Assembly (NCBI RefSeq): GCF_001677475.2
Contig: NZ_CP015229.1
Source: Escherichia coli
Lineage (GTDB): Bacteria; Pseudomonadota; Gammaproteobacteria; Enterobacterales; Enterobacteriaceae
DNA length: 64,000 nucleotides
Reading direction: 5' to 3' (one strand)
Below are positions 14,601 through 17,600 of the stretch, piece after piece. Numbering within the stretch: position 1 is the stretch's first letter; each line of letters opens with the position of its first letter. Position numbers: made by a program.

Positions 14601-17600
14601 AGGGTACATTTGTGCCAGCGTTTGACCGTTGCTCATGGGCAAATCGCCGATCACATTGCGAAAACCGAGGATCAAACCGCCGCTAATCAACGCGGGCAGC
14701 AACGGGAAGAAGATCTCCGCGAAATGAGAGATCAACTGCTCATGCCATTTCATATTCTGCCGGGCGGCTTTTTTTACCTGCTCTTTATCAACCTGCGCCT
14801 GTCCGGTTGACGCTATCAGTGCTTGATAGTAATCACCCACGTTGGTGCCAATCACCACCTGAAATTGCCCGGCATTGGTGAAACAGCCTTTCACCATGGG
14901 GAGTTGCTCAATTTCTTTCGGTCTGGCATTGGCCGGTTGGTTGAGGACAAAGCGCAGACGAGTAATACAGTGGCTCACCGTCGCAATATTGCCGCGCCCG
15001 CCGACCAGTTCAATCAACCGATCGATATCCGTTTGGTTTATTTTGCTCATCATAAAGCCCCATGGCAGATGACATTTTTGGTTGGCTGCAGAATATATTG
15101 CGCTGAAAAATTTAAAAACGGGAACGTTCCCGAAACGCAGCGAAGATCACAATTTATCGTTCAGGAAACGATCAGGACAGGGTGGCGGGGATGATGATTT
15201 GTTGCGGTTCGCTGCGCCCGGTTACCTGCGCGATCAACTGGCAGGCCGCCTGGCGTCCAGCTTCGGCGTAACCGGGATCTACGGTGACGATCTCCGGATG
15301 GAGGAATTTCATTAACGGCGTATTACCGACGCTCGCTAGTTGCAAGGTGTCGATGCGTTGCTCTTGCAGGTATTTACTTGCACCAAGTGCCAGCGTGTCG
15401 GTTGCGCACAGTAAGGCGGTAGTTTCAGGCGTAATCACTTTTGCTACGTTCTCATAGCCTTGCTTCATAGCAAGGCCTGGCAGGGCGGCAACGGGATGCA
15501 GTTTATGCGCTTTGCAGAACGCCAGGTAGGCTTCGTGACGTCGCTTACCGGTCGTCACGTCACAGTGCGGCACGCCGAGATAACTGATATTACGATGCCC
15601 CTGGTCATACAGCCGTTGCATCAGGATCTTGATTGCCCCTTCGTCGTCATAACAGACCGAAGCAAAGCCTTTTGCGTCACGCGCCAGCAGAACCAGCGAT
15701 GACTGCCAGTGGGTTAACATTTCTTCTGTTATGCCAGTAAAACCGAACAGCACTACGCCGTCGATATTACGCCGTTTCAGCACCCCCAAATGTTCGGCAA
15801 CTAATTGCGGGGAAAACTGACTTTCCATCATGATTGGATCGTAACCTTGTTCATAGAACGCTGGCAGCATGGTTTGAACGGCGAGATTTTCTGACAACGA
15901 ATCCAGGCGGGTAACAATGATGGCGACCACTTTATCGCTTTGCCCACGCATAGCGCGTGCAGAGCGGGAAGGGGAAAATCCATGCTGATTCATCACTGCT
16001 TCAACACGCTCGCGGGTGCGCTGGCTCACGCCGCTTTCGTTATTCAGCACCCGGGAAACTGTAGATTTCCCCACGCCGCTTAAGCGCGCGATGTCTTTGA
16101 TGGTCAGCCGATTTTGCATCCTGTTGTCCCGTAACGTGTTGTTTAATTATTTGAGCCTAACTTTACCCGTGCATTCAGCAATGGGTAAAGTCTGGTTTAT
16201 CGTTGGTTTAGTTGCCAGCAGGTATTATATCGCCATAAATGCTACGAATATTATTGGATTCTCCTTATTATTTGCGGCGCTTTTTTCACTTACCGGAGGT
16301 TATATGGAACCTGATCCCACGCCTCTCCCTCGACGGAGATTAAAACTTTTCCGGTAAGCCCGTCTTTTCACGGCGTTACCGGATGCGTAAGGCCGTGACG
16401 TTTTAACGTCCCTGCTCAGCTTTATTTCCTTCAGGTAAGGCTTCGCCACGCCTGAAGACATTTCTGTACTGTTTCAGACAGTGCGGAGGGACTCCTTATG
16501 TTTAAAGAAATTTTTACCCGGCTCATTCGCCATTTACCTTCCCGTCTGGTTCATCGTGATCCATTGCCTGGCGCACAGCAGACAGTGAATACGGTGGTCC
16601 CGCCGTCCTTAAGTGCGCATTGCCTGAAAATGGCGGTGATGCCCGAAGAAGAATTGTGGAAAACGTTCGACACCCATCCGGAAGGGTTAAATCAGGCGGA
16701 AGTGGAATCTGCCCGCGAACAACATGGTGAAAATAAATTACCCGCACAACAACCGTCGCCGTGGTGGGTACATTTATGGGTCTGCTATCGCAACCCCTTT
16801 AATATTTTACTCACCATTCTCGGCGCTATTTCTTACGCCACGGAAGATTTATTTGCCGCGGGCGTTATCGCGCTAATGGTCGCTATTTCTACGTTGCTGA
16901 ACTTTATTCAGGAAGCACGTTCCACTAAAGCGGCAGATGCCCTGAAAGCGATGGTCAGCAATACCGCGACGGTGCTGCGCGTAATTAACGACAAAGGCGA
17001 AAATGGCTGGCTGGAGATCCCGATCGACCAGCTGGTGCCCGGCGATATTATAAAACTGGCGGCGGGGGATATGATCCCGGCAGATTTACGTATCTTGCAG
17101 GCGCGGGATCTGTTCGTCGCTCAGGCGTCGTTAACCGGTGAGTCTCTGCCCGTGGAAAAAGCCGCTACCACTCGCCAGCCGGAGCACAGCAATCCGCTGG
17201 AGTGCGACACCCTGTGTTTTATGGGCACCACCGTGGTGAGCGGCACGGCACAAGCAATGGTGATTGCTACAGGAGCCAACACCTGGTTTGGTCAACTGGC
17301 GGGGCGTGTTAGTGAGCAGGAAAGCGAGCCGAATGCCTTTCAGCAAGGGATCAGCCGCGTCAGTATGCTGCTGATTCGCTTTATGCTGGTGATGGCTCCG
17401 GTGGTGTTGCTTATCAACGGTTACACCAAAGGTGACTGGTGGGAAGCGGCACTGTTTGCGCTTTCGGTCGCGGTAGGCTTAACGCCGGAAATGTTGCCGA
17501 TGATTGTTACCTCGACGCTGGCGCGCGGCGCAGTAAAGCTGTCGAAACAGAAAGTGATCGTCAAACATCTGGATGCCATTCAGAACTTTGGCGCAATGGA

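Follow-up and report, generated by a model that had tools for sequence, protein, structure and literature searches.

A PhoP box, a leader RNA and the short ORF mgtL make up the mgtA control region between treR and mgtA in Escherichia coli

The DNA between treR and mgtA in Escherichia coli raises two questions: how much of it is regulatory RNA, and whether the very short open reading frame (ORF) that it contains is a gene in its own right or a by-product of RNA structure. We addressed these in a 64,000-nt stretch of E. coli contig NZ_CP015229.1 (assembly GCF_001677475.2), hereafter the window, in which the intergenic span occupies 16120-16497 (378 nt) and contains a PhoP box, a promoter and a leader. 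On one side lies treR (15172-16119, minus strand), assigned by an NCBIfam equivalog model, and on the other the regulated gene mgtA (16498-19194, plus strand), which encodes a Mg2+-translocating P-type ATPase of 898 aa and is preceded by the Shine-Dalgarno sequence GGAGGG (16485-16490, plus strand). MgtA scored 1607 bits in the search against the NCBIfam equivalog TIGR01524 (cutoff 610.75), the RefSeq label of its E. coli orthologue is mgtA, and the TreR and MgtA flanks are in the same gene order as in E. coli. The original prediction had described the whole span as an mgtA leader of roughly 380 nt, with a 17-codon proline-rich ORF, mgtL, that has its own ribosome binding site, acting as a Mg2+- and proline-sensing attenuator.

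We consider it very probable that the element is the orthologue of the E. coli and Salmonella mgtA control region, including a switch between folds A/B and C that is coupled to mgtL; it is real, conserved, and already described and annotated. This identification draws on a match of the Rfam family RF01056 (Magnesium-II), the Mg sensor core, at 16289-16404 on the plus strand. The cmscan hit runs untruncated over the full model, from position 1 to position 115 of 115, scores 125.8 bits (gathering score 40; E = 5.5e-25) and stops 94 nt before the mgtA ATG. In the core, stem A, with two small hairpins inside it, precedes stem-loop B. Together with the flanking genes, the RefSeq mgtL annotation and the conservation described below, this match supports the identity proposed in the original prediction, which had named an Rfam scan as its check and lack of conservation of the ORF or leader structure in related genomes as its refutation; both are conserved across related genera.

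The extent of the leader can be placed from its promoter signals. The PhoP box GGTTTATCGTTGGTTTA (16194-16210, plus strand) is a perfect match to the direct repeat (T/G)GTTTA-N5-(T/G)GTTTA and is the single match to that pattern in the window, where 0.04 would be expected by chance. Its core is identical to TGGTTTATCGTTGGTTTAA, the footprinted PhoP box of Salmonella mgtA (PMC3335776), and the box is kept in Escherichia, Citrobacter, Leclercia and Pseudenterobacter. A predicted -10 hexamer, TATTAT, can be read directly at 16223-16228 (plus strand), 12 nt downstream of the box. The Salmonella mgtA promoter belongs to 'architecture I', defined by one direct-orientation PhoP box 12 nt upstream of the -10 hexamer, and there the distance from -10 to +1 is 7 nt and the leader is 264 nt long (PMC3335776); the arrangement in the window has the same architecture. 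From this layout, the PhoP box would overlap the -35 position and activate the mgtA promoter. A generic sigma-70 scan of 16000-16620 returned zero promoters, and no match is expected from such a scan, since the promoter is activator-dependent and has no -35 hexamer.

Using the Salmonella promoter table (PMC3335776), we infer a PhoP-dependent transcription start near 16235. Because the box and the -10 hexamer place the start there, the predicted 5' leader RNA of mgtA covers 16235-16497 on the plus strand, a length of about 263 nt instead of the ~380 nt first proposed. The interval originally proposed thus contains the leader but is the whole intergenic region, of which the other ~115 nt are the promoter with its PhoP box and, presumably, the divergent control region of treR. 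It is better labelled as three parts: the promoter with the PhoP box, the ~263-nt leader, and mgtL.

Within this leader, mgtL is a 17-codon ORF at 16304-16357 (plus strand), with an ATG start and a TAA stop, located 140 nt upstream of mgtA. Its Shine-Dalgarno sequence GGAGG, read directly at 16295-16299 (plus strand), lies 4 nt before the ATG, so that the claim of a 17-codon ORF with its own ribosome binding site holds as made. The peptide opens with M-E-P-D-P-T-P-L-P, which places four proline codons within the first nine, and at the DNA level the ORF does not differ from the E. coli mgtL (WP_001387276.1) that RefSeq annotates at the homologous position. The ORF belongs to the MgtL family as we delimited it, i.e., 15-17 codons, a start of the form M-[DE]-P-[DE]-P-T-P-L-P, its own Shine-Dalgarno sequence and a position inside stem A. 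The existence of an ORF of this length carries no weight by itself, because the surrounding 8 kb holds 113 ORFs that are 20 aa or longer; the significance of mgtL rests on the Rfam match, the RefSeq mgtL annotation and conservation across genera. As a 17-codon gene is easily overlooked by gene callers, its annotation has practical value.

To compare the element among relatives, loci were collected by searching genome contigs for exact matches to a 20-nt anchor that lies in and around stem B. This yielded 26 enterobacterial loci, representing 26 enterobacterial species in seven named genera, and ten chance matches that were discarded, nine from outside the family (Terriglobia, Treponema, Sphingobacterium and others) and one from Yersinia similis. 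The sample is a subset, as the anchor missed Salmonella, Klebsiella and the Enterobacter cloacae group, and the alignment columns under the anchor are invariant by construction. The ORF is retained in 24 of the 26 loci, across Escherichia, Citrobacter, Kosakonia, Leclercia, Pseudescherichia, Pseudenterobacter and Enterobacter; the exceptions are one locus with an earlier stop (L030) and one with a 2-nt deletion (L036). Codons 1-9 are nearly invariant among the enterobacterial loci, and both GGAGG and the ATG are invariant in all 27 aligned sequences.

The leader is predicted to be strongly structured, with a minimum free energy (MFE) of -86.9 kcal/mol compared with -68.2 ± 5.0 for shuffled sequences (z = -3.8; none of 200 shuffles was as stable). 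The unconstrained MFE structure contains both stem A, as a three-way junction, and stem B. In the Rfam and MFE structures stem A pairs 16289-16299 with 16348-16358 (plus strand), with the Shine-Dalgarno sequence of mgtL in its 5' strand and the stop codon in its 3' strand. Stem-loop B (16370-16396, plus strand), taken from the Rfam structure, has ten pairs and carries a single G.G mismatch in the window. Across 25 distinct sequences, 97.8% of the 725 cells of the RF01056 structure pair, versus 35-49% when the partners are slid. For stem B alone the figure is 97.6%, with compensatory changes at three pairs (AU/GC, UA/GC/CG and CG/UA).

The competing fold was obtained by constraint. When the 5' strand of stem A is masked, to mimic a ribosome sitting on the proline codons, the MFE prediction changes to an alternative stem-loop C (16351-16382, plus strand; local hairpin -18.6 kcal/mol), in which CCGGUAAG (16351-16358) pairs with UUACCGG (16376-16382). 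Stem C is mutually exclusive with both stem A and stem B. The Rfam consensus shows both of its arms as conserved, and in the sampled loci they are fixed by the search anchor. No covariation was found in stem A, its inner hairpins or stem C, all of which are invariant and in part fixed by the anchor; the invariance of stem A and its inner hairpins counts neither for nor against structure.

Three further hairpins appear in both the MFE and centroid structures on the plus strand. One, CUUCAGGU...GCCUGAAG at 16429-16457, lies downstream of the core and is conserved, with 93.9% of cells pairing and four pairs changed on both sides among 18 sequences. Another, at 16464-16486, lies directly 5' of the mgtA Shine-Dalgarno sequence and extends into it; 85.7% of its cells pair across genera, and both sides have changed in six of its ten pairs. 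The third, a 5'-proximal hairpin at 16240-16279, was considered as part of the conserved core and rejected, as only 62.6% of its cells pair across genera; 17 nt are deleted at this position in E. coli E69 and E. whittamii, and the hairpin is lineage-specific and outside the core.

Given a conserved RNA that holds a conserved ORF, the ORF could be an untranslated by-product of a pure Mg2+-binding riboswitch, its conservation being that of the RNA. The ORF lies wholly inside the conserved Rfam structure, stem A would, on the folding model, occlude the mgtL Shine-Dalgarno sequence, and Mg2+-dependent folding alone has been reported, in work as cited in PMC11552253, to be enough to modulate Rho termination in vitro. 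The pattern of substitution nevertheless runs along codons. In codons 2-7, positions 1 and 2 do not vary wherever the RNA model leaves them unpaired, with the sole exception of position 1 of codon 6, whereas the third positions beside them vary freely; the third position of Pro9 shows all four bases, and third positions account for six of the 11 variable sites in codons 1-12. Indels at the C-terminal end of mgtL are in frame (3 and 6 nt) and leave the stop in stem A. These features, along with the invariant ATG and GGAGG, suggest that selection acts on the codons in addition to the RNA. Moreover, translation of E. coli mgtL has been demonstrated by translational fusions, peptidyl-tRNA assays and toeprints in published work, in which EPDP mutations also altered mgtA expression. 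A riboswitch without a translated ORF is therefore highly unlikely. Still less credible, to the point of being negligible, is that the real coding feature of the leader is one of two longer ORFs present in a mechanical ORF list, either a 53-aa antisense ORF (16300-16461, minus strand) or a long ORF (16016-16357, plus strand) in frame with mgtL. The antisense ORF is intact in five of six aligned Escherichia sequences (in E. coli E69 it is 39 aa), but this persistence is explained by DNA identity of ~99%, and outside Escherichia it is broken or wholly changed, the best ORFs being 6-74 aa of unrelated sequence. The upstream ATGs of the long in-frame ORF precede the inferred transcription start and fall in the PhoP box and treR region, most genera have no such extension, and elsewhere the extensions vary in length and sequence. 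Neither ORF is annotated in RefSeq, and both were rejected for poor conservation, the placement of the upstream ATGs and this lack of annotation.

The nature of the read-out raises a third alternative, a classical attenuator of the trp/his type that ends in an intrinsic terminator and responds mainly to proline supply. The four-segment layout of the leader, with 1:2, 2:3 and 3:4 pairings, resembles the trp type, the opening of the peptide is rich in proline codons, and proline sensing was proposed by Park et al. 2010. However, a search of 16000-16620 on either strand for a G+C-rich hairpin followed by a U tract returned no sites, and stem B is followed by GACGUUUUAACG rather than by a U run. 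Termination in Salmonella is Rho-dependent, in a published model built on the same A/B versus C folds (PMC11552253), and the absence of an intrinsic terminator fits this model. A later study questioned whether the element responds to cytoplasmic proline. The prolines of mgtL are, furthermore, interspersed with D and E; E. coli mgtL shows IRD at EPDP, and the published mode of sensing is ribosome destabilisation, with drop-off or stalling at EPDP and the proline codons in low Mg2+, while a toeprint of EttA has been placed at Pro3. A proline-responsive intrinsic attenuator is thus a poor candidate, with very little probability left to it. With regard to the original prediction of Mg2+/proline-sensing attenuation, the Mg2+-linked leader stands, while the leader has no intrinsic terminator, the published read-out is Rho-dependent and direct proline sensing is disputed.

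The preferred reading, an mgtL-coupled switch under PhoP control, would operate as follows, with Rho involvement and the signal sensed by the ribosome taken from the literature or inferred. Low Mg2+ signalled by PhoQ would lead to binding of phosphorylated PhoP at the 16194-16210 box and transcription from about 16235. Four segments of the leader would then compete: segment 1 (CUUACCGG, 16289-16296), segment 2 (CCGGUAAG, 16351-16358), segment 3 (GUUACCGG, 16375-16382) and segment 4 (GUAAGG, 16387-16392), all on the plus strand. The OFF fold would combine 1:2 (stem A) and 3:4 (stem B), and the ON fold would be 2:3 (stem C), with mgtL lying inside stem A, so placed that segment 1 contains its Shine-Dalgarno sequence and segment 2 its stop codon. 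With ample Mg2+, mgtL would be translated to its stop, A or B would form, and the pyrimidine-rich flanks of B would be exposed, leading to termination before mgtA, via Rho according to the Salmonella work. In low Mg2+, with a weak supply of Pro-tRNA, or without EF-P, EttA or bL31, the ribosome would stall or drop off at M-E-P-D-P-T-P-L-P, so that segment 1 would be held or segment 2 freed, stem C could form and RNA polymerase would enter mgtA. Translation of mgtL, and control of mgtA through its efficiency, have been published for the identical E. coli sequence.

Two aspects of this mechanism are debated. One E. coli study, as cited in PMC11552253, found no evidence for Rho-dependent termination at E. 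coli mgtA, while other papers treat the leader as Rho-dependent; the termination step in Escherichia is therefore contested. The literature is also divided between direct binding of Mg2+ by the leader as a riboswitch and sensing solely via translation of mgtL (PMC11552253). The mgtA leader is a textbook case in which RNA folding and nascent-peptide-dependent ribosome behaviour are combined to sense Mg2+.

The closest known system is the mgtA leader of E. coli K-12 and Salmonella enterica itself (RF01056, WP_001387276.1), with the same peptide as RefSeq E. coli MgtL, the same A/B/C segments and the same flanks (treR, mgtA, ridA and pyrI); Salmonella mgtA also shares the PhoP box core and box-to-(-10) spacing, with a leader of about the same length (264 versus ~263 nt). 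The corA leader of E. coli and Salmonella, with corL, is likewise a three-way junction around a short upstream ORF with Rho-dependent termination and exclusive OFF (A+B) and ON (C+D) folds (PMC11552253). Unlike mgtL, corL starts with UUG and contains just one proline; it precedes a different gene and does not match in sequence. The mgtP/mgtM leader of the Salmonella mgtCBR operon is also PhoP-activated and long, and in it a short proline-rich ORF links translation with transcription elongation, but it has two upstream ORFs, is reported to sense ATP, and its operon, which Salmonella gained by horizontal transfer, does not occur here. In trpL, hisL, pheL and pyrL, leader-peptide translation likewise selects between hairpins of overlapping segments, but these leaders end in an intrinsic terminator, i.e., a hairpin with a U tract, which the mgtA leader does not have. 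The M-box (ykoK) riboswitch, RF00380, is likewise a Mg2+-responsive leader before Mg2+ transporter genes; it has an unrelated fold, no leader peptide and a distribution typical of Firmicutes, and the Rfam scan of the whole window gave no match to it.

What this copy adds to the known element is limited to confirming that seven named enterobacterial genera conserve the ORF, stem B and both downstream hairpins. The region is found in 5,425 of 5,426 complete E. coli genomes, with at least 80% of it in 5,423. The surrounding 21 kb reaches only ~97.8% identity to any complete E. coli genome. In the compared region, the closest of these genomes differs by two base substitutions only: T instead of A at 16427, directly 5' of the downstream hairpin 16429-16457, and A instead of G at 16238, just past the inferred start. 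The two occur together in none of the 5,426 complete genomes searched. That they could shift the set-point of the switch or its termination efficiency, and that the use of Rho may be lineage-specific here, seems to us most improbable; both lie outside mgtL, outside stems A, B and C and outside the predicted pairs. The A at 16238 is also present in the five other aligned Escherichia sequences.

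The 378-nt interval at 16120-16497 is the exact gap between two divergent genes, treR (15172-16119, minus strand; a 315-aa protein matching the TreR equivalog TIGR02405 at 591 bits) and mgtA (16498-19194, plus strand; an 898-aa protein matching the Mg2+-translocating P-type ATPase equivalog TIGR01524 at 1607 bits). The gene order around the locus, treC-treB-treR / mgtA / ridA-pyrI-pyrB, is the same as in E. coli. Within the gap, mgtL (16304-16357, plus strand) runs from an ATG at 16304 through 17 codons to a TAA at 16355-16357, with a Shine-Dalgarno sequence, GGAGG (16295-16299, plus strand), 4 nt 5' of the ATG; its translation is exactly the peptide of the original prediction, which had also assigned the ORF its own ribosome binding site. 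A short ORF by itself carries no significance, since 113 ORFs of 20 aa or longer fall wholly or partly within the 8 kb around it; mgtL is significant because of three independent results, i.e., an Rfam match, RefSeq annotation and conservation across genera.

An Rfam scan of the whole window, one of the checks that had been proposed for this leader, matched RF01056 (Magnesium-II, enterobacterial Mg sensor) over the full model length at 16289-16404, with a score of 125.8 bits (gathering score 40; E = 5.5e-25), and the mgtL ORF falls within this match. The 378-nt interval is present in 5,425 of 5,426 complete E. coli genomes, with at least 80% coverage in 5,423. The RefSeq label under the match reads 'mgtL: mgtA regulatory leader peptide MgtL', and 16304-16357 agrees at every base with the mgtL CDS annotated in the closest complete E. 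coli genome. The element is already known, as had been claimed. Every defining feature testable by sequence tools was found here, and the locus belongs to the mgtA leader / mgtL system, beyond mere similarity. In one complete genome, NZ_CP178558.1, the match extends no further than the first 118 nt of the interval (31% coverage), and 1 of the 5,426 has no match to it; judged from these alignments, rare E. coli strains have the mgtA leader disrupted or deleted.

The leader folds with an MFE of -86.9 kcal/mol, compared with -68.2 +/- 5.0 for shuffled sequences (z = -3.8), and the unconstrained MFE recovered the Rfam structure plus two hairpins further 3'. On the plus strand, these comprise stem A, formed by 16289-16299 and 16348-16358 around two small hairpins, stem-loop B (16370-16396), a downstream hairpin at 16429-16457 and a second at 16464-16486 which abuts the mgtA Shine-Dalgarno. 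Direct reading of the same strand gives four complementary segments, CUUACCGG (16289-16296), CCGGUAAG (16351-16358), GUUACCGG (16375-16382) and GUAAGG (16387-16392), with alternative partners: the second can pair with the first (stem A) or the third (stem C), and the third with the second (stem C) or the fourth (stem B). When pairing was forbidden at 16292-16340, mimicking a ribosome stationary over the mgtL prolines, the MFE shifted to stem C, the local hairpin of which has an energy of -18.6 kcal/mol, and B was lost.

Conservation was assessed by scanning one genome per species with the anchor CCGGTAAGCC-N8-25-TTACCGGATG, which covers the ORF end and stem B only. The scan yielded 36 loci, of which ten were rejected as chance matches (nine outside Enterobacteriaceae and one in Yersinia similis). 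The 26 kept are from Escherichia, Citrobacter, Kosakonia, Leclercia, Pseudescherichia, Pseudenterobacter, Enterobacter and one soil metagenome-assembled genome labelled no more finely than Proteobacteria bacterium. An ATG-initiated ORF of 15-17 codons ending at the anchor TAA, with the pattern M-[DE]-P-D-P-[TA]-P-[LH]-P-..., occurs at 24 of these. Among the first and second positions of codons 2-7 that the RNA model leaves unpaired, codon 6 position 1 is the only one to vary, and neighbouring third positions are variable (GAA/GAT/GAC, CCT/CCC, ACG/ACC/ACA, and all four bases at Pro9). The C-terminal part differs in length by 3 or 6 nt only, so that the stop codon stays within stem A. Across this alignment the substitution pattern reads as that of a translated sequence. 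The two exceptions are Leclercia sp. UBA7405 (about 1170-1231, minus strand), where an earlier TAA gives a 14-aa peptide, and Enterobacter sp. EA-1 (about 2190-2256, minus strand), where a 2-nt deletion in codon 3 shifts the frame (ATGGAT--CGATCCC); they could represent sequencing error, or natural loss or variants.

The original prediction had staked itself on conservation of the short ORF or leader structure in relatives, and the structure is also kept: among 25 distinct sequences, 97.8% of cells in the Rfam structure are paired, compared with 35-49% when partners are slid. In stem B, 97.6% of cells are paired and three pairs have changed on both sides (AU/GC, UA/GC/CG and CG/UA), while its G.G mismatch in Escherichia is a C-G pair in most other genera. 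The hairpins at 16429-16457 and 16464-16486 have 93.9% and 85.7% of cells paired, with four pairs and 6 of 10 pairs changed on both sides, respectively. Stem A and its inner hairpins have zero variation, which is partly imposed by the search anchor and says nothing on structure, yet is to be expected where the same bases are constrained both as RNA and as codons. Upstream of stem A, the 5' hairpin at 16240-16279 (62.6% of cells paired) is Escherichia-specific, its conservation ending at that genus, and E. coli E69 and E. whittamii carry a 17-nt deletion there; this part of the leader appears, from the alignment, dispensable or variable.

Compared with the closest complete E. coli genome, the interval has two base differences, A for G at 16238 and T for A at 16427, both outside mgtL, stems A, B and C and the predicted pairs; the A at 16238 is common to all five other aligned Escherichia sequences. 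Identity of the leader interval to its best E. coli match is 99.5%, against a best identity of 97.8-97.9% among the 5,426 complete genomes for the surrounding 21 kb (9000-30000), which is syntenic with E. coli (nrdD-treCBR-mgtA-ridA-pyrIB...). This difference is consistent with a leader under purifying selection in an Escherichia lineage that is somewhat divergent and is probably the source of the window.

The PhoP-box pattern (T/G)GTTTA-N5-(T/G)GTTTA occurs once in the 64-kb window, where 0.04 would be expected by chance: GGTTTATCGTTGGTTTA at 16194-16210 (plus strand), with the same core as the PhoP box mapped by footprinting at Salmonella mgtA. A -10-like hexamer, TATTAT (16223-16228, plus strand), lies 12 nt past the box, a spacing as in Salmonella, where mgtA transcription starts 7 nt beyond the -10 to give a 264-nt leader (PMC3335776). 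By analogy, transcription would start near 16235 and the leader would be about 263 nt; the roughly 380 nt originally given to the leader is therefore approximately the entire intergenic region, the other 115 nt or so of which would be taken up by the PhoP box, the promoter and, presumably, the control region of treR.

The published account of the mechanism is the best supported, and the anatomy in the window fits it. At low periplasmic Mg2+, PhoP-P would activate transcription. Complete translation of mgtL would favour the A/B (OFF) fold, in which pyrimidine-rich stretches flanking B (e.g., 16359-16369 and 16400-16429, with C above G) would stay free and transcription would halt short of mgtA; mgtL left unfinished would favour stem C (ON) and read-through. 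The present analysis itself shows which parts are present and where, their match to the family, the alternative pairings and the conservation of ORF and helices; for the termination factor and the sensing step we draw on the literature. PMC11552253 summarises the A+B versus C model, its reliance on proline and acidic residues in mgtL, and termination by Rho in Salmonella. A list of Rho-terminated 5' UTRs includes E. coli mgtA (PMC7815308), but one study cited in PMC11552253 found no evidence for Rho at E. coli mgtA. The EPDP motif of E. coli MgtL causes intrinsic ribosome destabilisation, with translation abortion within MEPDPT that is greater at low Mg2+ or without bL31 (bioRxiv 10.1101/2021.02.02.429294); EttA opposes this destabilisation, with a toeprint at Pro3 (PMC11282234). 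Three points are still debated in the literature: Rho action at E. coli mgtA, direct Mg2+ binding by the leader RNA, and proline level as a physiological signal.

The codon-position pattern, the indels that preserve the frame and published translation assays all contradict a reading of the leader as a pure riboswitch whose ORF goes untranslated. A trp-type attenuator would require an intrinsic terminator, and this reading fails because no hairpin with a U tract was found across 16000-16620. The original prediction is thus confirmed as an observation and supported as an interpretation, with leader length and mechanism corrected: 'Mg2+/proline-sensing attenuation leader' stands as an identification of the mgtA leader and mgtL, on Rfam, RefSeq and conservation, and its mechanistic wording gives way to the published account.

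Two overlapping ORFs were rejected as real genes. A 53-aa ATG ORF on the antisense strand (16300-16461, minus strand) is kept within near-identical Escherichia sequences only, being intact in 5 of 6 aligned, 39 aa in E. coli E69 and not kept in other genera, and is most likely a by-product of strong DNA conservation. A long in-frame ORF running into mgtL has a start that precedes the putative transcription start.

Elsewhere in the window, pyrL, another known short leader ORF and one which gene callers can overlook, should by synteny lie in the pyrBI attenuator at about 21270-21410 (minus strand), upstream of pyrB (20333-21268). RF02850 ('Yersinia sRNA 276', antisense type) has a full-length match at 34048-34242 (plus strand; 184.6 bits, gathering score 100), which by synteny with NZ_CP151004.1 falls within pepA on the opposite strand and may merely reflect conservation of the pepA coding sequence. 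A leuX-like tRNA-Leu (anticodon CAA) lies at 40256-40340 (plus strand), a position which the gene order of E. coli 18KM2445 would place among yjgR and idn genes; the genes present beyond lptG seem not to be those of that strain, and leuX is a known integration hot spot.
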